Source: an uncultured virus (IMG/VR IMGVR_UViG_3300010346_001238) (lineage: Duplodnaviria; Heunggongvirae; Uroviricota; Caudoviricetes). From it: a DNA stretch of 64,000 bases. Location: IMG/VR virus record IMGVR_UViG_3300010346_001238; one strand, given 5' to 3'. Below the pieces are notes generated by a model that saw nothing but the letters and a program-made list of their open reading frames with translations, did no database searches and was not told the origin of the DNA. Shown piece by piece: positions 32,092-60,194 of this stretch; the first letter of the stretch is position 1; each line of letters opens with the position of its first letter. Position numbers and translations under genes: made by a program.

Positions 32092-33574
32092 TTATGATGC
32101 GGACTTTTGGGGAATTTTTTCCCCGCTAACGGCATGTGATGCCGCCGCCATCCTTTCGGAAATTGTTTTATTTTTAATATTTATGGCTGCATTTACATCT
32201 CGATCATGTTTAGCGCCACAATTAGAACACTTCCAAATTCTGGTATTAAGATCAATATCCGTATTCATATGTTTACATGAATTACACATTATGGTAGTGT
32301 ATGATTCAATTATATCATAGACTTCTTTGGGCGTCAAGGACAAATTTGCTTTATCTTTAGTTTTGGCCTTGAATTCGGATATGGCGTGTTCTCGGGATAT
32401 TGTATTGAAAGACTTTTTTTGTTTTCCTTGTCCTTTAGCTAAAGTATGTAATTTTACATCACCGATGCCAATGACATCATAATTGCGAAGAAAATGAATA
32501 GCTAATTTGTGATAATAATCTGATTTGGCGTTTTTAAAATGTAATTTAATTTTTGCTATTTGTTTAGTAGTTTCCAGCAATCGTTTACTACGGAATTTTG
32601 CTTTAGTTCCCCGTTTCCAAGTACCATCTGGATTATAGCAATGGGGATTTCCTTTACGAAATTGTCGATCTACTTTTCTTTGCAATTTTCGCAATTTTTT
32701 CTCTAGGCGATTATCTTTAGAAAGACTTTTAGGAGTAAATTTTTCTCCATCGCTGGTTGTAATGGCGGATTTCATGCCGGGGTCAATACCTACAATTTTT
32801 TCTGTAGGGGGGGCCAAAATCTCGGGTAAAAACTGATTTATCGGCTTCAATGGTGCATGTAATATACCATCGCCCAATTGGATTTTTCTTTAAAGAAATT
32901 TGTTTAATTGTACTTTCTTGTGGCAGTGGGCGATCTTCGGTAATTTCTACTTGAGATAGACAGGGGGAACCGCACCATGATAAATCTACATATTTTCCAA
33001 ATGTGAAAGCCGAGGTTGATATAATTTGTTTTTGGATGGCCGAGGTTTGTCCTTTCTTTTTAAATCGGGGGGCTTGATGTACTCTTTTTTCCCATGAATT
33101 ACAGAAATCATCCCAGTGACGAAGAATACTGAACCCAATAGCAGAAGATCCATCTTTAAGAATATGATTTTTTAGGGTATTTACTTTTTCTCCGGCATAA
33201 AGTCGGGCGAGATGGATATTTGAAAATCTTCGGTATCGGGATCCATCTTTTCTACGTTTGATTGCGGTATCTTTTTCGATGCGTTTTGAAATAAATAATT
33301 CCAGTGCTTTTTCTATGGAAATATTTTCTTGTTCGGCCAATTTTTTTACTTCACCGGCTCGTCTGCCGGTTAGTTTTTTTCCGGCAAACATTTTTGCATA
33401 TTCATTAATAATGGATGCTCTGCGTCCATTTTTACATTCGTGAAGGGCATGTCGGGTATGTCTGACAAGTTCATTCCATAGGATTCTGCTTTTTGTTCCG
33501 GCGTTTTCCAGTGCTTGAAGCTGCACGGGGGTTGGCAGAAGAGCGTACGTATAATTTCTCGTCATTTTTTCCAT
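32092..33574 (-). CDS. compact type V (TnpB/Cas12f-like) RNA-guided nuclease, split by a frameshift at C7 (32807-32813); 493 aa if C6
   Basis: N-terminal YTYALLPT..Q..L, PRFKKK, GRWYI; RuvC-I GIDPG; CNSC..CSNC; RuvC-III DRDVNAAINI; adjacent to the array. Confidence 0.9.
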
Positions 33575-33613
33575 TGTCGTCAATATACTTTAATGGGGAA
33601 TGAAAGTCAAGGA

Positions 33614-35515: not shown

Positions 35516-35922
35516 GGGCCTGACATGGATTCGATCTAAGGGAGGAGATATTTGATGCATGTAGAGGAAGATTGCTTGGCCTCTTAAAAAATGTAATCAA
35601 AAAAACAACTGCCAACCGATTAAACGAATTGGCCTCGGTGGATTTCTCTATGCCGCTTGTCGGCGTGGAGGAAACTGCTGGTGTTGAGCTAGCTTTAGCA
35701 TAACACCAAACACCCAAAGATTCTCGCTATGAGGGTGTTGAGCTAGCAGCGAGAAAACTGCTGGTGGTTAAAATTATCAGCGTGAAGGAATGGTCACTAT
35801 ATCATTCTATATCGTTTAGTTTGCTTATTATCGAACACGATGAAATCAAAAATAAGATAAACATGTAGATTCAGATTTTGATTCTTTTAGAGACCCGGGT
35901 TCGATTCCCGGCAGGTCCACCA
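35516..35922 (+). ncRNA. ssrA: tmRNA
   Basis: GGGCCTG/CAGGTCC-A-CCA acceptor with G3:U; GGATTCGA; T-arm; tag ORF 35611-35703 ending ELALA*. Confidence 0.95.
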
Positions 35923-45021: not shown

Positions 45022-45030
45022 ATGAATAAT

Positions 45031-45115
45031 GCCACTGTGGATAAGGGAAATTGGAACAACCGACTGACTCAAGATCAGTTATCCTTTGCACGTTCGAATC
45101 GGGTCAGTGGCACCA
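45031..45115 (+). tRNA. tRNA-Leu(CAA)
   Basis: gccactg/cagtggc, CTCAAGA loop, CCA. Confidence 0.8.
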
Positions 45116-45121
45116 ATTTAT

Positions 45122-45576: not shown

Positions 45577-46857
45577 ATGAATAATGACATAGCAGTTATA
45601 TCGACATTTTTCAATCCTCTAAAATATAAAAATCGTTATGAAAATTACTTAAAATTTCAGGATTTTATATATGAATGTGGATTAAAAGATCATTTTTATG
45701 TATCGGAAGTATTATATAAAAATGATGAACCATTTATCAATCATAAAAATATATTAAGATTTAAAACTGAAGATATTTTATGGCATAAAGAACGAGCGTT
45801 AAATTTAACTGTAAAAACTCTTCCAAAACAATATACTAAAGTTGTCTGGGTTGACACTGATATAATTTGGTCCAATATAAATTGGTGGAAAGAAGTTAGT
45901 AAATTATTAGAAGAATATAATATAATTCAACCATTTGCTTATTGTAAATTTTTAAATTCCCATTTTAATTTGGATCACACTCAAATGTCCATATTTCATA
46001 GATTATTCCGAATAAATAATGGATTGCCAACGTTTCATGCTATTCATTATGGTGGAACAATGGCTTATAATAGAAAATATTTTGAATGCGTTGAACTTTA
46101 TGATAAAGATATAATTGGAGGAGGGGATTTTATATCAAATATATCGATATTAAAAATGCCTATAGATGAAAATGTTCAAGCGTTTGATCCTGAATTAGAT
46201 TCATATATTGAAAAATCGGGTAAATATTTAGAAAACAAATATCATTATTTAGATGATTCAGTTTATCATCTTTATCATGGTCAGCTTCATGATCGTCAAT
46301 ATATAAAGAGATATTCTATTCTTAAAAATTATATTTTTAATGATATGTGTGAAAAGGATGATAATGGGTTATATAAGTTTAAGTCAACTGTTTCACAAAA
46401 AATAAAATCACAATTTTTAGATTATTTTAAAACTAAAAATGAGGATTTAATACAATTTATTGTTTCTTTAAGTAAGTCATATAATATTGAAAGAAGTTCA
46501 AATGGAAATTTCAAATGGATTTCGGCTGAAAATATATATGAATTATATAATTTAAAAAGTATTAAATTAAAAGTTAGTCGAATGGGGAATTCTAATACCT
46601 CTCCATATTTAAATGTTATATGTAATGGAAACTTTAAACATTATTCGCTAGATTTAAATAAAGATACTGAAATCATTATTCCTGTTTCTGATAAAAAAGA
46701 AGTATCTAAACTTATTCTTTTAGGAAAAGGATTTGTACCTGCCGAAATAGATTTAAACAGTCGGGATTTTCGCCAATTATCTTATGCAATTAAAAAAGTA
46801 GAAATTTTACAACAAAATAAAACAGAATATGAAAATTATTTATTAGAAAATTTTTAA
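45577..46857 (+). CDS. GT-A-fold glycosyltransferase-like, paralog 1
   Basis: WHKERALN, WVDTD, GGGD, HLYHG. Confidence 0.8.
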   Translation: MNNDIAVISTFFNPLKYKNRYENYLKFQDFIYECGLKDHFYVSEVLYKNDEPFINHKNILRFKTEDILWHKERALNLTVKTLPKQYTKVVWVDTDIIWSNINWWKEVSKLLEEYNIIQPFAYCKFLNSHFNLDHTQMSIFHRLFRINNGLPTFHAIHYGGTMAYNRKYFECVELYDKDIIGGGDFISNISILKMPIDENVQAFDPELDSYIEKSGKYLENKYHYLDDSVYHLYHGQLHDRQYIKRYSILKNYIFNDMCEKDDNGLYKFKSTVSQKIKSQFLDYFKTKNEDLIQFIVSLSKSYNIERSSNGNFKWISAENIYELYNLKSIKLKVSRMGNSNTSPYLNVICNGNFKHYSLDLNKDTEIIIPVSDKKEVSKLILLGKGFVPAEIDLNSRDFRQLSYAIKKVEILQQNKTEYENYLLENF

Positions 46858-46861
46858 TATT

Positions 46862-48133
46862 ATGAATAATGACATAGCAGTTATATCGACATTTTTCAAT
46901 CCTTTAAAATATAAAAATCGTTATGAAAATTACTTAAAATTTCAGAATTTTATATATGACTGCGGATTAAAAGATCATTTTTATGTATCGGAATTATTGT
47001 ATAATAATGAAGAACCGTTTATTAATCATGAAAATGTAATCAGATTTAAAATGGAAGATATATTTTGGCATAAAGAACGAGCTTTAAATTTAACTGCAAA
47101 AATACTTCCAAAACAATATTCCAAAGTTATCTGGGTTGATGCCGATATGATTTGGTTCAATAAGAATTGGTGGAAAGAAGTAAGTAAATTATTGGATGAA
47201 TATAATGTAGTTCAACCATATTCAAGCTGTCAATATTTACGATCTAATTTTAGTACTGAAAGAAAAACTAATTCGGTATTATTTTATATATGTCAAAATA
47301 ATTTTAATGAAAAGGGATTGGTAGGTGGAGCGATGGCCTATAAACGGGAATTTTTTGACACGATTGGATTATATGATCGGGCAATAATGGGTGGCGGAGA
47401 TATAGTATCTATTATGCCCATATTAAAAACTACTATTCCAACAAAATATGCATATTTTGATTTAAAATTGAATGAATATTTAGAAAAAGCAACTCAGTAT
47501 ATAAATAACCGATATTATTACTTAGATGAATTAATTTGTCATTTATATCATGGACGAATATTTGATCGGGGGTATAAAGATCGATATAAAATGAATGAAA
47601 ATTTAACATTTGATGATTTATGTGAAGTTGGAGAAAGCGGATTGTATAAATTTAAATCAAATGTTACAAAGATTGTAAAATTTAATTATATTAAATATTT
47701 TGAAGATAGGAATGAAGATTGGGAGCAACTAATTTATCCATTAAATAAAAGATATATGATTGAAAAAAATATAGATGGATCATTATATAAATGGTATGCC
47801 CCAACAAGTGTATTTGAATTGAAGAATATAAAAAGTATTAAACTACAAATTGATAGACGAGGAAATCCATATACTTCTCCATATTTAAATGTCATAGTTA
47901 ATGAAAAATTTAAGCAATTTGCATTAAATTTAGAAAATATTACCGAAATCATTATTCCTATATCTGAAGTGGAGCAAACATCTAAACTTGTTTTATTAGG
48001 AAGAGAATTTATACCTTCACGTACCTCTTTAAATAGTAATGATAATCGTTATTTATCTTATATAATTAATAAATGTTGGATATTGCCAAATGGAAAAATA
48101 AATTATGAAGAATACCCAATAGAAAATTTTTAA
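46862..48133 (+). CDS. GT-A-fold glycosyltransferase-like, paralog 2
   Basis: WVDAD, GGGD, HLYHG. Confidence 0.8.
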   Translation: MNNDIAVISTFFNPLKYKNRYENYLKFQNFIYDCGLKDHFYVSELLYNNEEPFINHENVIRFKMEDIFWHKERALNLTAKILPKQYSKVIWVDADMIWFNKNWWKEVSKLLDEYNVVQPYSSCQYLRSNFSTERKTNSVLFYICQNNFNEKGLVGGAMAYKREFFDTIGLYDRAIMGGGDIVSIMPILKTTIPTKYAYFDLKLNEYLEKATQYINNRYYYLDELICHLYHGRIFDRGYKDRYKMNENLTFDDLCEVGESGLYKFKSNVTKIVKFNYIKYFEDRNEDWEQLIYPLNKRYMIEKNIDGSLYKWYAPTSVFELKNIKSIKLQIDRRGNPYTSPYLNVIVNEKFKQFALNLENITEIIIPISEVEQTSKLVLLGREFIPSRTSLNSNDNRYLSYIINKCWILPNGKINYEEYPIENF

Positions 48134-48135
48134 AT

Positions 48136-49419
48136 ATGAATAATGACATAGCAGTTATATCAACATTTTTTAATCCTCTAAAATATAAAAATCGATATGA
48201 AACTTATTTAAGATTTCAAGACTTTATATATGACTGCGGATTAAAAGATCATTTCTATATTTCTGAATTGTTATATGATGAAGAAGAGCCATTTATTAAA
48301 CATGAAAATGTAATTAGATTTAAAGTTAAAGATATATTTTGGCATAAAGAACGGGCTTTAAATTTAACTGCAAAAATACTTCCAAAACAATATTCTAAAA
48401 TTATCTGGGTTGATGCAGACGTAATTTGGTTCAGTAAGAATTGGTGGAAAAAAGTAAGTAAATTGTTGGATGAATATAATATAATTCAACCATATTCTCA
48501 TTGTCAAAATTTAAATAAAAATTTTAGTTTAGATAGAAAATATAAATCACAAATTTATAGTGTAATATTTTATAATAAAAATACATCAAAACAAATGGAA
48601 TATGGTGCCCCGGGTGGTTCTATGGCTTATAAGCGGGAGTTTTTTGAAAATATAGGTCTTTATGATAGATGTATAGTTGGCGGGGGAGATTATAAATCAA
48701 TTTATTCTATATTTGGTTTGGAATTACCAATGCGAGATAAATCATTTGATTTTAAAATAAATGAATATGCGAATATTATCAAAAAATATATTGGAAATAA
48801 ATATTATTATTTAGATGAAATAATGTATCATTTATATCATGGAAGAAAATTTGAACGACAATATTCAAAAAGGTATCAATTAATTAAAAATTTTAATTTT
48901 TATGATTTATGTGAAGAAGATGAAAATGGGTTATATAAATTTAAATCTACAGTTACAAATGAATTGAAATTGAAATTTATTAATTATTTTAAAAATCGCA
49001 ACGAAGACTGGGAACCATTAATAATTCCATTGTATAAACCGTACTTGGTAGAGCACAGTAAAAATAATATATTTAAATGGATGCCTCCCGAATGTGAATA
49101 TGAATTACATAATATAAAAAGTATTAAATTACAAATTTGTCGAATGGGAAATGCTCTCACTACTCCATATTTGAATGTTATATCTAATGGAAAGTTTAAA
49201 CAATATTTATTGAATTTAGATAAAGATACAGAAATTGTTATTCCTATTTCTGAAAAAAAAGGAATATTCAAACTTATTCTTATAGGAAAGGGATTTATAC
49301 CAGAAAAAGTTTTTATTAATAATTCGGATGTAAGAAAATTATCTTATGTAATTAACAATGTTAAAATTTTACAACATGATAAAGAAGAATTTGAAGATTA
49401 TCCGGTAGATGCAATGTAA
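48136..49419 (+). CDS. GT-A-fold glycosyltransferase-like, paralog 3
   Basis: WVDAD, GGGD, HLYHG. Confidence 0.8.
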   Translation: MNNDIAVISTFFNPLKYKNRYETYLRFQDFIYDCGLKDHFYISELLYDEEEPFIKHENVIRFKVKDIFWHKERALNLTAKILPKQYSKIIWVDADVIWFSKNWWKKVSKLLDEYNIIQPYSHCQNLNKNFSLDRKYKSQIYSVIFYNKNTSKQMEYGAPGGSMAYKREFFENIGLYDRCIVGGGDYKSIYSIFGLELPMRDKSFDFKINEYANIIKKYIGNKYYYLDEIMYHLYHGRKFERQYSKRYQLIKNFNFYDLCEEDENGLYKFKSTVTNELKLKFINYFKNRNEDWEPLIIPLYKPYLVEHSKNNIFKWMPPECEYELHNIKSIKLQICRMGNALTTPYLNVISNGKFKQYLLNLDKDTEIVIPISEKKGIFKLILIGKGFIPEKVFINNSDVRKLSYVINNVKILQHDKEEFEDYPVDAM

Positions 49420-51703: not shown

Positions 51704-51711
51704 ATTTCAAT

Positions 51712-51788
51712 GCGCCGAAAGCTACAGTGGACCGGCACCCGGCTCTTACCCGGATATGGTTGGGTTTCAACTACCCATCGGCGCACCA
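51712..51788 (+). tRNA. tRNA-Lys(CTT)
   Basis: Cloverleaf, CCA. Confidence 0.85.
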
Positions 51789-52101: not shown

Positions 52102-52106
52102 CTTTT

Positions 52107-52187
52107 GGAGGCGAGGGCAAAGTAGTCGAGCCGCAACCCTGTCACGGTTGAGAATTTTAGCGGGTGCGAGTCCCGTCGTCTCCGCCA
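52107..52187 (+). tRNA. tRNA-Asp(GTC)
   Basis: Cloverleaf, G73-CCA. Confidence 0.88.
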
Positions 52188-52189
52188 AT

Positions 52190-52431: not shown

Positions 52432-52518
52432 GGGCGTGTCGCATAGTGGCAATTGCAGGAGACTGTAAATCTCCCGGCCTAACGGCCTTCGTAGGTTCGA
52501 GTCCTACCATGCCCACCA
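52432..52518 (+). tRNA. tRNA-Tyr(GTA)
   Basis: Cloverleaf with V-arm, CCA. Confidence 0.93.
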
Positions 52519-52561
52519 CTTTAATATATATTTTTATGTAAACGTTGAATATTTATATTAT

Positions 52562-52894
52562 ATGTTAATGAATGAGATTAAAGATTTAATTAAAGAAGAA
52601 TTGATACAATATATCATTAAAGAATCAAAGATGGAATTGAATCATCTTAAAAATAACATTTCGAATTCGACTATAACTGGAAAATCGTGGAATAAGTTAA
52701 TTGATCAATTGGGAGATGTTATTAATGAAATTAAAGATTTTAATTCTCAATATTCCAGTCCCATACATGGGCCCTTGCCCAATACTTCTACGGCTCTATT
52801 AAAAGCAAAAGAAATAATTTCTATTTTACAAGAAATAAAACCAGTTATAATTGGAATGGATTCTATTGAACGAAAAGAAAATTCAATATATTAA
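52562..52894 (+). CDS. hypothetical protein
   Basis: IKDLIKEEL..IIKE N-terminus after TATTTAT. Confidence 0.7.
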   Translation: MLMNEIKDLIKEELIQYIIKESKMELNHLKNNISNSTITGKSWNKLIDQLGDVINEIKDFNSQYSSPIHGPLPNTSTALLKAKEIISILQEIKPVIIGMDSIERKENSIY

Positions 52895-52905
52895 AATAAT
52901 TTTAT

Positions 52906-52980
52906 TCCGGGGTAGATCAATGGTGGATCGTCTGACTGTTAATCAGAAGGTTGCAGGTTCAAGTCCTGCCCTCGGAGCCA
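52906..52980 (+). tRNA. tRNA-Asn(GTT)
   Basis: Cloverleaf, CCA. Confidence 0.93.
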
Positions 52981-53227
52981 ATTTTAAAACGTTATAAAAA
53001 GTTATGAAAAGTAAACTTAAAATGTTGCGATGGGTAAATTTTGTCAGTAAAGTTCTATCATTATCTTTTAAAAATAAGGAAATAATGGATTTAGATTCAA
53101 GATTGGATTCAATTGAGAATCGAGGAAAAGTCCCTTATTATGATTATTAGCATCCGTGAGGGATTTAATTCCCTCACGAGTTTTTATTAAAACCTATATA
53201 TTTATTATATAAAATGATTGATTTTAT

Positions 53228-53875
53228 ATGATAAAGTTAAAACAATTACTTAGGGAATTCCAAGAAAGGAAGGAATTATACCATGCAACTACTCGGAAAG
53301 CAGCAAATGGCATTATAAATAGAGGGACTGATATAAGTTTAGCAGGAAAACATTATGGTGGTGCGGGAAGAGATCAGGGATCGGGATTTTATTTTTTTAC
53401 AAATAAAGGCGATGCTATAAAACAAGCAGAAGATTTTGATGGAGAAGTTATTTTAGTATTTAATCAAAAAATTTCAGTTGAAGATTTTGATGTTGATTAT
53501 GAAGTTGAGGAGAAATCTTGTAAAAAGTTTTTATTAAAACATTTGGAATTTGTTAAAAAACATGCTGAAGCATTGGGGATAAAAGAAGTTCGTCCAAAAA
53601 ATCATTTTGCAGGACCAGTGCTTATATTAAGAGTACCCGATAATCCTCGGGCTATGAGGGCTATGAATTTGAGTGTAACGGGATCCATGAGTTCATATTA
53701 TGCAACCATCATATCAATTATGTTTCGAACTTTGGAAAGAATAAATAAAGGATTATTTTTAAAATTTAAAAAAGAATTTTTATTTGATGCTGTGGCTATT
53801 AAATACATTGGAGAAAAACCTTTATTTCCTATTAGAGTTGAAGATCTTAAAGGTAATATTATTTTAAGACTTTAA
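53228..53875 (+). CDS. putative ADP-ribosyltransferase-fold protein
   Basis: LYHATT...GSGFYFFT..DA pattern; MIKLKQLLRE start. Confidence 0.55.
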   Translation: MIKLKQLLREFQERKELYHATTRKAANGIINRGTDISLAGKHYGGAGRDQGSGFYFFTNKGDAIKQAEDFDGEVILVFNQKISVEDFDVDYEVEEKSCKKFLLKHLEFVKKHAEALGIKEVRPKNHFAGPVLILRVPDNPRAMRAMNLSVTGSMSSYYATIISIMFRTLERINKGLFLKFKKEFLFDAVAIKYIGEKPLFPIRVEDLKGNIILRL

Positions 53876-53882
53876 ATTTTTA

Positions 53883-53969
53883 GCATCCGTGGTGTAAATG
53901 GATAACACACTTGGCTTCGAACCAAGAGACGACTCGCTTGTGGGGGTTCAAATCCTCCCGGATGCACCA
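53883..53969 (+). tRNA. tRNA-Arg(TCG) with extended variable region
   Basis: cttgg-CTTCGAA-ccaag, CCA. Confidence 0.88.
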
Positions 53970-53971
53970 TT

Positions 53972-54049
53972 CCCGTCTGGGCAGGTGGGGTCATATTGCG
54001 CTAGTCTGAAGAACTAGAGAACTCCGTTCGACTCGGAGAGACGGGACCA
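53972..54049 (+). tRNA. tRNA-Phe(GAA)
   Basis: Cloverleaf, CCA. Confidence 0.85.
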
Positions 54050-54113
54050 ATTTCAAAATGTTACTTGACATTTATTTAAATCTTGGTATAATGTCTAGTA
54101 AAATTAAAGTAAT

Positions 54114-54338
54114 ATGAAGTTGACGTTGAAATTTCAAGACCAAGATTTTGAAACCTTGCGTAAATTTGATTCGGCGGTGAAACGCCAATTGGGACCCAAT
54201 GTTTATGTGGGGACAGATTATTTGTGTTTTTACTTTGATTTCCCCAAGAAACTTTCGGAGAGGCTTCGGCCTCATGCGCCAAAAGGCGAATTGGAAGTAA
54301 CTTTGGAATCTTCGGTTCCAGATGCAAGAAAGAATTAG
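54114..54338 (+). CDS. hypothetical protein
   Basis: ORF after TTGACA..TATAAT. Confidence 0.65.
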   Translation: MKLTLKFQDQDFETLRKFDSAVKRQLGPNVYVGTDYLCFYFDFPKKLSERLRPHAPKGELEVTLESSVPDARKN

Positions 54339-54344
54339 ATTTTG

Positions 54345-54710
54345 TGAGGGGTAAGTTGTCTAACCCCGAACGGTGACAACAAAGCATGTGAGACATGCTG
54401 CTATGGTGGATAAAGAAATGGACATCCTAGAGGCACCACCCCGTATAGGATATGATGGGTAGTTTTGTTCCGGAAAGGGACATATTGCGCAAACCGCATT
54501 TTCTTTCCCCATCCAGAGAAATGCGGGTATTAATTTATCTCAATGAATTGTATAAGTAATAATATTGCTTTACGGGTTGAGAAGGTTATATAAACAACAC
54601 ACCACAATAACGGGTTCGAAACCGGACGATAATGTGTTGGGTGAGAGCATGGAATCTTACTTATAATCCCAATTTCCATGAATTGAGAAGCAATTGCTTA
54701 TCTCAACCCT
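54345..54710 (+). ncRNA. large multi-pseudoknot RNA, unidentified
   Basis: More than 12 complementary segment pairs; no credible + strand ORF. Confidence 0.65.
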
Positions 54711-54712
54711 TT

Positions 54713-54790
54713 CAGCGTGTCGCCTAGCCCGGCATGGCACTTGCATGGGGTGCAAGAATAACGTGGGTTCGAATCCCACCACGCTGACCA
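54713..54790 (+). tRNA. tRNA-Pro(GGG)
   Basis: Cloverleaf, CCA; near-copy of Pro(CGG). Confidence 0.9.
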
Positions 54791-54913
54791 ATCTCAACAA
54801 CTATTAAATAGTGCCAATTGAAGCGACACGAAGTAGAAAGGAAAAGTTGATAGTTGGAAGTTATATTGGCAAAGCCTGAAAGGTGTCATTCTACGTTCTT
54901 TGTCAATATAATT

Positions 54914-54990
54914 GGCACCGTGGCCCAACAGGAAGAGGCGGCTGACTTAGGATCAGTAGGTTGGGGGTTCGAATCCCTCCGGTGCTACCA
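54914..54990 (+). tRNA. tRNA-Leu(TAG), short variable loop
   Basis: Cloverleaf, CCA. Confidence 0.88.
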
Positions 54991-55020
54991 CTTTATAAAT
55001 ACTCAAATGAAAGATTAAAA

Positions 55021-55515
55021 ATGATAACTAAAGTTATAGCTGATGTATTAAAATACCCATGTAATGCAATATGCCATCAGGCAAATTGTTTTCATACAAT
55101 GGGTTCGGGGGTAGCCCTTCAAATTAAGAAAAAATATCCCGAGGCTTATGAAGCCGATATTAAACATGGAAAAAAGGGAGATCGATTAAGATTAGGAAGT
55201 ATGTCGGTAGCCCAAGCTAAAGATGGAAAATATATTTATAATGTATATGGCCAATATGAATATGGAACCCATAAAAGACAAACTAATTATGAAGCTTTAT
55301 ATACTGGATTAGAATTAGTTAAATCTCATGCTTTGGATCACGATATAAAAGATTTAGCCGTACCTTATTATATGAGCAGTGCTTTGGCCGGAGGAAATTG
55401 GATAATAGTAGAATCAATGTTTCGTGCTTTATTTGAATATTCTACTATTAACATAATAGTTTGTGAATATAGACCTATGCATTATTGGTCTGCTGATGAA
55501 ATGAAGAAAAATTAA
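55021..55515 (+). CDS. macrodomain (ADP-ribose hydrolase-like) protein
   Basis: HQANCFHTMGSGVA..IK.KYP, NVYGQ, P..SSALAGGNW. Confidence 0.85.
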   Translation: MITKVIADVLKYPCNAICHQANCFHTMGSGVALQIKKKYPEAYEADIKHGKKGDRLRLGSMSVAQAKDGKYIYNVYGQYEYGTHKRQTNYEALYTGLELVKSHALDHDIKDLAVPYYMSSALAGGNWIIVESMFRALFEYSTINIIVCEYRPMHYWSADEMKKN

Positions 55516-55520
55516 ATAAC

Positions 55521-55595
55521 GGCCCTATCGTCTAATAGAAGGATATATGCCTTTCAAGCATAAGATCGTGAGTGCGATACTCCGTAGGGCTGCCA
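55521..55595 (+). tRNA. tRNA-Glu(TTC)
   Basis: CTTTCAA loop, atypical T-arm, CCA. Confidence 0.8.
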
Positions 55596-55599
55596 CTTT

Positions 55600-55965
55600 A
55601 TGCGAAAATGGATTAAACAAAAACAAGGTACAAAAAATTGTGGGGCGATAGCTATTGCCGTTATTGCGAAGGTTTCCTTGAAAAAAGCCATTGAAGCGTG
55701 CGGTACAGAAGGGCCAATGAATACTAAAGATTTAGTTAGAGGTATTCGTAAATTGGGTTATACTTGTCCGGATCATTGTAAAAGAAAACGTCCAGAATTA
55801 GGAATTGGTCATCTTACATATACTGCTAATAAGAAAAATCGAAGACATTGGGTAGCTATTGATGGAAACAAAATATATGATGGGTTTCATGGAAAACCTG
55901 ATGGTACTGTAGATTGGAATAAAGAATGGAAATTAACTTCGTATTTACCTGTGAAAAAAATTTAA
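55600..55965 (+). CDS. peptidase C39-like protein
   Basis: Q....NCG.....HWV.....IYD. Confidence 0.7.
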   Translation: MRKWIKQKQGTKNCGAIAIAVIAKVSLKKAIEACGTEGPMNTKDLVRGIRKLGYTCPDHCKRKRPELGIGHLTYTANKKNRRHWVAIDGNKIYDGFHGKPDGTVDWNKEWKLTSYLPVKKI

Positions 55966-56041
55966 GGGCGGCTGGTGAAATCGAAAATCATGCAAGTCTT
56001 CTAAACTTGAGTTCCCGGTTTGAATCCGGGGCTGCCTGCCA
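55966..56041 (+). tRNA. tRNA-Arg(TCT)
   Basis: Cloverleaf, CCA. Confidence 0.88.
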
Positions 56042-56064
56042 TATATAATAAAATTAATTTTAAT

Positions 56065-56588
56065 ATGAACAAATTTCCATTATTAGATTTAGAAATAAGA
56101 AAATTTTTAGAAAATGTCATTGAAAAAGGACCCAGGCCCTTTAATATATTTGAATATGGTTCGGGAGGTTCTACGATTTGGTATGGTAAAAAAATATAGG
56201 CAAAATTATATCGTTGGAACATGATATAGAATGGTATAATGAAGTAAAAAAAGAAATTATAAATCTTCCAGTAGAATTATATTATCGTCCACCAATTAAA
56301 TCTAAAATTATAACTCATAGTTCTGTACTTCCAAATAATGATTTTAGTTCATATATTAATTTTATATCGGAACTTGATAAAAAATATAATTTGATAATTG
56401 TAGATGGTCGGGCGAGGGTTTTATGTTTTCAAAAGTCATTAAAATATGTAAATTTGGGAGGACATATTATATTGCATGATTCTGAACGAGAAGAATATAG
56501 TATATGTTGGAAAATGGCTACAAGAAATAGATTTAAAATTTGGGAAATTTTAGAAAAAAGAAATACGTTGATTTGTCAAAAGTATTAA
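56065..56588 (+). CDS. class I SAM methyltransferase, frameshifted at A7 (56188-56194)
   Basis: FEYGSGGST in one frame; ISLEHD..IIVDGRAR..ILHDS in another; A8 restores the frame. Confidence 0.75.
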
Positions 56589-58193: not shown

Positions 58194-58220
58194 AGTTTGG
58201 AAAAATTAAATACTATTTAT

Positions 58221-58456
58221 CTTTGGTGCGGGAAGAAAACCCGCCTGCTTTAGCGGGTGGGATGAATGCCCGTTAATATAATAATGATTTTGGAATGATT
58301 CCAAAATATGTATATTTTGACTTTCCAGTTCAATAAGAACTGGGGAACGGCGGGAACCGCCGTCTAAGCCAACTGCCTTGACGTAAGACAAATTCCTAGC
58401 GGAATTTGCAGTTGATTGGGTTGGAAACCCATTCGCTTTAGCGGATGGGTAGTTCA
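58221..58456 (+). mobile_element. non-autonomous IS200/IS605-derived element, copy 2
   Basis: Near-identical to 41772-42005; also follows TTTAT. Confidence 0.85.
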
Positions 58457-58465
58457 TGAAATGTT

Positions 58466-59798: not shown

Positions 59799-59850
59799 AC
59801 TTGACATTTAAAACTAATGTGATATAATTTTACATGATCTTTGAAAATTA

Positions 59851-60086
59851 TTTAGGCGACTTAGACGCTGAATATGGTTAAGCCCATATTTAGAGGAAGT
59901 TCGATACTACCAAACCTAATGTGGGAGAAAATATTTCATTGACCACAGAAGTAGCAATCCTAAATGTCCGAGGGTGTCGGTTTCCCATTGACGACTGGTT
60001 GGAGCAGCAACTATTAGCACGTTGCCACAATTTTTATTGTGAGATAAATGTCTAAGATAATACAGAATATCGGCTATTTGCCTAAA
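59851..60086 (+). ncRNA. rnpB: RNase P RNA, very compact (~236 nt)
   Basis: P1 tttaggcga/ttgcctaaa; P2 cttagac/gtctaag; P3 hairpin; GAGGAAGTTCGATAC and ACAGAATATCGGCTA form P4; AGATAAATG; CCACAGAA. Confidence 0.8.
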
Positions 60087-60092
60087 GAATTT

Positions 60093-60180
60093 CGGATAGA
60101 CGCCCATAAGGTAGGTGCCGAAAGGGCTGCGTAGGTGACGCTAAAACAACAATGTCGTTTCGTTGTTCACCGTCTATCCG
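60093..60180 (+). ncRNA. unidentified small structured RNA
   Basis: 10-bp closing stem cggatagacg/cgtctatccg, GAAA tetraloop. Confidence 0.5.
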
Positions 60181-60194
60181 TCAATTTAATAGAT

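Follow-up and report, generated by a model that had tools for sequence, protein, structure and literature searches.

Two conserved, uncatalogued RNAs upstream of tRNA-Pro in a jumbo-phage tRNA array

The locus between the 74-aa ORF and tRNA-Pro

The DNA analysed here, a stretch of 64 kb (hereafter the window), comes from the genome of a large uncultured phage and harbours 33 tRNA genes and one tmRNA according to ARAGORN. The virus record nearest to it spans 101.8 kb and is rated 29% complete, and three copies in IMG/VR are identical to the window letter for letter. The region of interest is situated between an ORF of 74 aa (54114–54338) and tRNA-Pro(GGG); the latter begins at 54713, in agreement with an earlier note on this DNA which had described an RNA directly abutting this tRNA. 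The features of the locus, including the two RNAs that were identified (RNA A and RNA B), are collected in Table 1. Cleavage by RNase P at the 5' end of tRNAs is part of general tRNA processing, and by this route the 5' processing of tRNA-Pro would also define the 3' end of RNA B.

When analysing the promoter sites of the surrounding region (52500–56500) 17 were detected, and the one upstream of the 74-aa ORF is the only one matching the σ70 consensus in 12 out of 12 positions. It could drive the ORF together with both RNAs and tRNA-Pro, giving a single precursor. An extension of the RNA upstream to this promoter (54095–54345) was considered and rejected, since this stretch is a real ORF and the stems found there are not above those of shuffled sequences.

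Relatives of the 74-aa ORF were found in 36 clusters at E≤0.01, with 62–78% identity when self matches were excluded, and the changes are biased to third codon positions in all 11 relatives compared, indicating that the ORF is a genuine protein gene. Searches for PHROG and Pfam families gave no family for the protein, and comparison of its predicted structure (pLDDT 83.5) with known folds gave no match, including for an S10/RRM-like RNA binder, which had been considered. Its look-alikes in the Atlas are ferredoxin-like folds, which fall below the bar for naming and derive from a low-confidence model, and the protein is tied to RNA A by position alone. Several relatives (P0037, P0039, P0041, P0044, P0048 and P0058) contain two matched stretches each or, in one protein of 3653 aa, three, suggesting that the 74-aa unit can occur as a repeat.

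Table 1. Positions of genes, RNAs and structural elements at the locus (window coordinates).
Feature	Position	Strand	Basis or remark
Sigma-70-type consensus promoter	54065..54092	+	12/12 consensus match
74-aa ORF, conserved marker of the tRNA array in this phage group	54114..54338	+	relatives and codon-position bias
RNA A, three tandem H-type pseudoknots and two hairpins	54339..54530	+	6 distinct copies; ends putative
RNA A, pseudoknot 1	54342..54380	+	54342-45/54370-73 and 54348-52/54363-67, crossed by 54355-60/54375-80
RNA A, hairpin H2	54383..54399	+	two-sided change in 2/6 pairs
RNA A, pseudoknot 2	54405..54451	+	54405-09/54436-40 crossed by 54424-29/54446-51
RNA A, pseudoknot 3	54454..54526	+	54454-59/54508-13 crossed by 54494-502/54518-26
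RNA A, hairpin H4, inserted in pseudoknot 3	54466-82	+	GGNAA loop
Linker, window only	54533..54570	+	degenerate direct copy of B 3' segment
RNA B, closed branched RNA	54571..54712	+	covariance model, covariation, fold
RNA B, P1 closing stem	54574-82/54701-09	+
RNA B, P2	54584-90/54662-68	+
RNA B, P3	54595-601/54633-39	+
RNA B, 7x7 internal loop, loop-E-like	54603..54631	+	strands 54603-09 and 54625-31, flanking P4
RNA B, P4	54611-24	+
RNA B, P5	54640-61	+
RNA B, P5-P7 loop-loop kiss, probable	54648..54680	+	P5 loop 54648-54 with P7 loop 54674-80, 7 bp
RNA B, P7	54670-85	+
RNA B, P8	54688-99	+
tRNA-Pro(GGG)	54713..54790	+	ARAGORN, Rfam

Gene order and folds of RNA A and RNA B

All 13 pairings named in the earlier note were located where it had placed them. 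The region contains nine Watson-Crick stems of at least 7 bp, a number reached by 3 of 200 dinucleotide shuffles (3.9 ± 1.9 stems). The excess is weaker at thresholds of at least 6 bp and at least 8 bp (17 of 200 shuffles as high for each), and the fold of the whole region has a z of -4.42 with none of 100 shuffles as low. These pairings had been taken as the stems of a single RNA of ~365 nt, possibly of a new large class and compared with the longer GOLLD and ROOL. Relatives gathered via the 74-aa ORF and via RNA patterns contradict this. In all three relatives that carry both parts (L034, L016 and L027) the order is RNA A, tRNA-Lys(CUU), a TTGACA-type promoter and then RNA B, and it is this tRNA and promoter placed between them that rule out the single 365-nt RNA in favour of two independent ones of ~190 nt and 140–175 nt, respectively. 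RNA B is present in L037 and L025, where the 74-aa ORF directly abuts a tRNA and RNA A is lacking, and L044 harbours RNA A and tRNA-Lys followed by protein genes, with no RNA B within its record. When the ORF loci were compared (22 listed, 21 distinct) full RNA A was found at five distinct ones, and in L024 and L023 only its start is visible. A possible one-knot RNA A, consisting of knot 3 and a GGCAA hairpin, lies between the ORF and tRNA-Lys in L026 (1425–1535) and scores 14.3 bits, which is below the 17.2 bits of an unrelated T5 gene and not significant. Upstream of RNA B, TTGACA is present in all six relatives at a spacing of 17 nt from a -10-like hexamer, which lies within 6–11 nt of the RNA; in the window RNA B is preceded by a -10-like hexamer only and no -35 box.

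RNA A and RNA B are separate and presumably stable ncRNA genes, each with a conserved fold of its own and found independently of the other, that probably became neighbours in the window after loss of the tRNA-Lys and the promoter between them. In this anatomy of two RNAs we have high confidence. Nine of the 13 pairings are kept in the relatives. One, catggaa/ttccatg, is complementary as proposed but more probably represents a kiss between two loops of RNA B, and three (tctcaat/attgaga, tataagtaa/ttacttata and attgctt/aagcaat) need a linker absent from the relatives. The first reading had overlooked helix H4 and the outer stem of pseudoknot 1 in RNA A as well as P2, P4, P5, P7 and P8 in RNA B. 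Its central proposal, that this phage tRNA array contains a conserved stretch of uncatalogued ncRNA with pseudoknots, holds: the Rfam scan it had suggested gave no match to any known family for RNA A or RNA B, and the collection of homologues it had called for revealed covariation in both. Further homologues were searched for with relaxed and strict pattern scans, none of which gave a new one among the matches examined with full flanks (80 of 112 and 80 of at least 120), and none were found in species genomes, cultured phages or three further virus records.

RNA A was identified in six distinct copies (the window, L034, L016, L017, L027 and L044), and every helix can be formed in each of them. 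It starts 0–9 nt past the stop codon of the ORF, and in the relatives its 3' end is situated 3–7 nt before tRNA-Lys. In the alignment of these copies 95.5% of 292 cells are paired and two-sided changes occur in 17 of the 49 pairs, with slid registers pairing at only 37–49%. None of 500 shuffles reached RNA A in four of five measures and six did so in the fifth; considering both RNAs, the folds lie far above slid registers and, in at least four of the five measures, above every one of the 500 shuffles, a comparison made with six (A) and seven (B) related copies in which the shuffles ignore relatedness and the structures are drawn from the same sequences. A profile built without the window finds 54351–54526 at E 9.5e-25, and the fold of RNA A has a z of -3.0. 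Among the single elements, stem 1 of pseudoknot 1 shows two-sided change in 4 of 10 pairs and the second stem of pseudoknot 2 in 3 of 5, and within the region of pseudoknot 3, including H4, the corresponding numbers are 2 of 6 (both from L017), 3 of 6 and 3 of 4. Stem 2 of pseudoknot 1 (invariant in 6 of 6 pairs) and the first stem of pseudoknot 2 (no two-sided change, 4 of 6 pairs invariant) are supported by conservation and not by covariation. When the three knots were tested as mutual repeats, 3 of 18 pairwise comparisons gave p≤0.02, none of them consistent across all copies.

RNA B is represented by seven copies, the one in the window and those of six relatives. A sequence-only nhmmer search built without the window did not find the window copy, and a covariance model was therefore built from the six relatives. 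This model places 54571–54712 at the top of the 64 kb with 30.4 bits against 12.8 for the next match, and 95 other loci, mostly chance matches to the RNA B pattern, reach at most 12.6 bits (the E-values of these models are rough). With the seven copies aligned to the model, a fit that leans toward structure, 92.1% of 191 cells are paired and two-sided changes are seen in 14 of 29 pairs. The minimum-energy fold of the window copy (z -4.36) has the common architecture consisting of P1, P2, P3-internal loop-P4, P5, P7 and P8, while a further hairpin in the relatives, P6, is missing from it. The window sequence UUAUAA was considered as a kissing loop and rejected, being in fact the 3' strand of P2.

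Several loops of RNA B are self-complementary. In six of the seven copies the P4 loop contains, in the same register, a tetramer that is palindromic by Watson-Crick pairing, with four different tetramers, and in all seven if G-U pairs are included (background 35 of 501 loops), and the P6 loop hexamer is palindromic in all six relatives, with three different hexamers (background 6 of 304). Perfect palindromes of 10–14 nt are also found in the P7/P8 arm of four of the seven copies. This pattern was seen before it was tested, and the copies are related. As the total count of palindromes of 6 nt or more in RNA B is not above that of shuffles (19 against 18.2), the case for self-pairing is built on their position alone; the predicted gain on dimer formation, within shuffles or just 1–2 SD above them, is not decisive, and the P4 loop of the window can also be read as a plain T-loop. 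For OLE and GOLLD, switching loop palindromes are taken as support for intermolecular kisses, the rationale being that neighbouring loop bases are unable to pair inside one chain (PMC12286853). By analogy RNA B probably associates with copies of itself via its loops. Within one molecule, the cognate pairing of the P5 and P7 loops beats all but 0.16% (by score) and 0.7% (by energy) of 5040 permutations over the seven copies, a pairing picked for testing after inspection; it comprises 5–7 bp in five copies and is weak in L037 and L051.

The linker separating the two RNAs in the window occupies the place of the tRNA-Lys and the promoter of the relatives and carries a -10-like hexamer (54560–65) but no -35 box. 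Aligned to the 3' segment of RNA B it shows 27 identities in a gapped alignment of 34 columns (12 of 3000 shuffles as high), and with the 3' half of RNA B it can form a duplex of -18.1 kcal/mol, a strength reached by 3 of 2000 shuffles and 20 of 6362 genome windows. This complementarity would follow from the copying of hairpins, as a copy of a hairpin complements its source. We read the linker as a putative duplication scar, marking where tRNA-Lys and the -35 box were lost.

Comparison with known RNAs

At the gathering score of Rfam only tRNA and tmRNA were detected in the window, and no family was assigned to RNA A or RNA B there or in 14 related loci. Lowering the threshold to E≤10 gave nothing meaningful in 53900–54900 and six related loci, GOLLD, ROOL and OLE being absent. 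Neither RNA has an Rfam match to 6S, SRP, RNase P, Y RNA, known ribozymes or riboswitches, the sole YrlA match (15.3 bits) falls on tRNA-Pro, and a permuted-tmRNA match of 14.9 bits in L061 overlaps tRNA-Lys. No tmRNA, permuted forms included, was called at RNA A or RNA B by ARAGORN or Rfam. RNA A is similar to the pk2-pk4 chain of tmRNA in having tandem pseudoknots, placed directly after a stop codon, but has no tRNA-like domain and no match to permuted tmRNA. The phage has a separate full tmRNA (35516–35922), the predicted tag of which is unusually long, 30 residues.

Stable non-tRNA RNAs in the tRNA regions of phages have been known since the work on T4 and T5, and a function for them is lacking. 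The T4 RNAs of rnaC/rnaD (species 1, 139 nt, and species 2, 119 nt) are small stable RNAs amid the tRNA genes of a lytic phage, a location shared by RNA A and RNA B, and RNAI, RNAIII, RNAIV, RNA1, RNA2 and RNA2H of T5 occur in the same setting, often paired. T4 RNAC and RNAD are described as late RNAs of unknown function (PMC9697503). When the models of RNA A and RNA B were run on the RNAs of the T4 and T5 tRNA regions no homology was found, the best R1 score on the two regions being 9.9 bits and the best R2 score, 17.2 bits, falling inside a T5 coding gene and not on an RNA; the folds differ as well.

ROOL and GOLLD have recently been shown to form RNA-only cages. RNA A and RNA B share with them the location in phage tRNA arrays, with tRNA neighbours in the relatives too, and RNA B shares with OLE and GOLLD the switching loop palindromes (the window copy lacking P6). 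ROOL and GOLLD are described as rich in pseudoknots and as neighbours of phage tRNA islands, and OLE and GOLLD as having switching palindromes and intermolecular kisses (PMC12286853, PMC12990946). However, these RNAs are 550–830 nt long as compared to ~190 nt for RNA A and 140–175 nt for RNA B, with no Rfam match between them. RNA B may by analogy work like ROOL, GOLLD and OLE, yet is not a member of these families.

The best-conserved part of RNA B is the 7x7 internal loop, which resembles loop E of bacterial 5S rRNA in its size, in GA...UA on both strands and in a short adjacent helix containing G-U. The outer pairs (G.A, A.U / U.A, A.G) are those of E. coli 5S loop E, all four being present in five of the seven copies, while the window copy and that of L016 each deviate in one pair. 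The three inner pairs are not those of E. coli, C.A, A.G and A.C in RNA B against U.G, G.A and G.G in E. coli, and are presumably isosteric; one to two extra U are found beside the loop, and the rest of RNA B is unlike 5S rRNA (no Rfam 5S match). Loop E is the binding site of bL25. It is composed of two opposed submotifs and is present also in SRP domain IV, as stated in 10.1101/2020.02.28.970798. Genes for L25, RtcB and Ro60 (TROVE) were found in none of five virus records each, which at 15–30% completeness are too partial to show absence.

A literature search gave no description of RNA A or RNA B. The readable supplements of a study with 10,006 models of viral structured RNAs (PMC10690425) contain no matching motif or contig id, and its models may hold pieces of either RNA; a large-scale clustering of intergenic RNAs is described in 10.64898/2026.10.21.760802. 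RNA A and RNA B are two new, real, conserved and uncatalogued RNA families of a loosely known kind. Backed by covariation and small enough for transcription and imaging, they make the question of their function testable: RNA B predicts explicitly which loops pair between molecules, and RNA A offers an uncommon architecture with three knots in a row.

Transcripts, possible functions and neighbouring elements

Contigs were collected from four RNA runs of four studies (24 runs listed), chosen for holding the stretch, with strand unspecified and no silent control; their depth is low (2–5x), and they are poor guides to ends. Among the contigs listed, one of 172 nt from run X8 consists of 54569–54712 followed by 54683–54710, which equals a circle of 142 nt (54571–54712) with its first 30 letters repeated. 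The joined ends hint at either circularity of the RNA or switching of the template across P1, and in both cases would mark the two ends of RNA B, of which the 3' end coincides with the boundary of tRNA-Pro. In run X12 a contig (one, of low depth) begins at 54347, close to the 5' end of RNA A, and in run X1 two contigs cover 54094–54299 and 54288–54590, the latter spanning the ORF, RNA A, the linker and the start of RNA B, which may fit a long precursor or DNA.

The explanation that we consider rather probable as a whole is that of two separate ncRNA genes acting as follows. RNA B would be a gene of its own, transcribed from the promoter seen at its 5' end in the relatives and receiving its 3' end from the cutting at the next tRNA, and would fold into a closed stem bearing a multi-arm junction. 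It would assemble with itself, free of protein, into a dimer or small oligomer by symmetric kissing loops (the P4 tetramer, the P6 hexamer in the relatives and the palindromic P7/P8 arm), with the P5-P7 kiss locking the arms and the loop-E-like internal loop providing the surface to which a host protein or a further RNA helix would dock, thereby working like a miniature OLE/ROOL/GOLLD assembly. RNA A would be made from the promoter of the ORF, its 3' end being cut along with the next tRNA, and its knots might confer nuclease resistance, so that RNA A would persist into the late phase of infection, be it as a free molecule or attached to the 74-aa mRNA as its 3' tail. The role of RNA A is the weakest step of this explanation. 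A more far-reaching reading, offered tentatively and to be regarded as doubtful, makes RNA B a natural multivalent building block with two or three different self-complementary arms, each of which pairs exclusively with its counterpart in a second molecule. Copies of RNA B, possibly as covalent circles, would in this way form a cage, ring or network free of protein during infection and display loop-E-like docking sites. If true, no smaller natural higher-order assembly made of RNA alone would be known from a phage tRNA array, and such arrays would constitute a reservoir of many RNA families of this type.

For RNA A, a role in cis is conceivable, the knots in the 3' UTR blocking 3'-5' exonucleases or raising the output of the 74-aa mRNA after removal of the tRNA, and even if we lean against it this has some appeal: in all six copies, including all seven loci (five distinct) retrieved with an ORF-independent pattern, RNA A lies 0–9 nt from the stop of the ORF, and the contig 54288–54590 bridges the two. 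However, full RNA A is found at just 5 of 21 distinct ORF loci while many ORFs run directly into a tRNA, and since most ORF loci have no full RNA A the mRNA can do without it. The start of the X12 contig near the 5' end of RNA A, seen in a single low-depth contig, also speaks against a cis element, as do invariant single-stranded stretches that suggest a ligand beyond mere bulk. That RNA A is instead a counter-defence decoy, its knots mimicking a type III antitoxin RNA or baiting other host RNases, would agree with tandem H-type knots and A-rich linkers, and antitoxin mimicry has a precedent in pseudo-ToxI of phage PhiTE, as reported in PMC3475682. We hold this to be very unlikely, as type III antitoxins and pseudo-ToxI consist of near-identical short pseudoknot repeats, in contrast to the knots of 41–79 nt in RNA A, which are not consistent repeats, are conserved instead of fast-changing and match no Rfam antitoxin.

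RNA B could also act as a monomer that decoys host proteins, titrating bL25/CTC or an SRP-like loop binder with its loop-E-like motif or mimicking an open promoter in the manner of 6S RNA. The conservation of the internal loop with its four outer pairs as in E. coli loop E, the closed terminal stem, the 6S-like length and the own promoter would suit such a role, which is compatible with self-assembly, but the three inner pairs unlike those of E. coli, the lack of matches to 5S, 6S or SRP RNA at a threshold as loose as E≤10 and the switching palindromes that it leaves unexplained make it unlikely. Still less probable is that RNA A, linker and RNA B constitute one fused RNA or switch in the lineage of the window, with the linker pairing to the 3' half of RNA B. 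The linker pairs with RNA B more strongly than do 1997 of 2000 shuffled sequences, the window RNA B has no -35 box and the X1 contig extends from the ORF into RNA B, yet the complementarity comes free with a degenerate direct copy of the 3' end of RNA B. Moreover, the linker stems compete with the conserved P2, P5, P7 and P8, the free fold of 54533–54712 leaves RNA B intact, the X8 contig carries the ends of RNA B alone, and the window-type copies are all identical, allowing no covariation signal. The slimmest chance is given to RNA A or RNA B being a ribozyme that aids the processing of the adjacent tRNA, similar to the theta ribozymes. Each is placed directly before a tRNA, there are pseudoknots whose loops contain invariant residues and the ends of RNA B are joined in one run, but no ribozyme family matches, host RNase P is enough for the 5' ends and, to our knowledge, phage ribozymes linked to tRNAs lie 3' of these. 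Two separate RNA genes, with RNA B probably self-associating through its loops, remain our preferred reading.

At least four more conserved RNAs lacking annotation are present in the same tRNA arrays. An element of ~130 nt upstream of the 74-aa ORF in L034 (5867–5996), not present in the window and with no Rfam match, has matches in 19 of 23 sequences searched, some of which are from one contig. Conserved elements between tRNAs of ~174, 67 and 150 nt were found at L019 1063–1236, L019 1237–1303 and L047 2652–2800, each in 6–7 loci, and the one of 67 nt looks by eye like the 52000 region of the window. In the window itself, the gene-free 123 nt between tRNA-Pro and tRNA-Leu (54791–54913) contain crossing complementary segments by eye and are possibly a third RNA (z -2.5 against mononucleotide shuffles, no match in 22 related loci), and a gene-poor stretch of 396 nt (59799–60194), with a promoter-like site at its start, a z of -2.9 and no match in related loci, is a candidate for a larger ncRNA ahead of tRNA-Ala. 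Three tRNA-like sequences (45030–45120, 51709–51787 and 52102–52189) are called neither by ARAGORN nor by Rfam at gathering score, the first being conserved in nine related loci at E<1e-7. Within the tRNA array there are also three tandem paralogous ORFs of ~425 aa (45577–49419), for the first of which no Pfam or PHROG family was found. A hairpin-rich region at 58194–58465 (z -5.3), with matches in L037 and no transposase, presumably resembles ends of the IS200/IS605 type, and a TnpB-like gene is split over two ORFs at 32092–33583.
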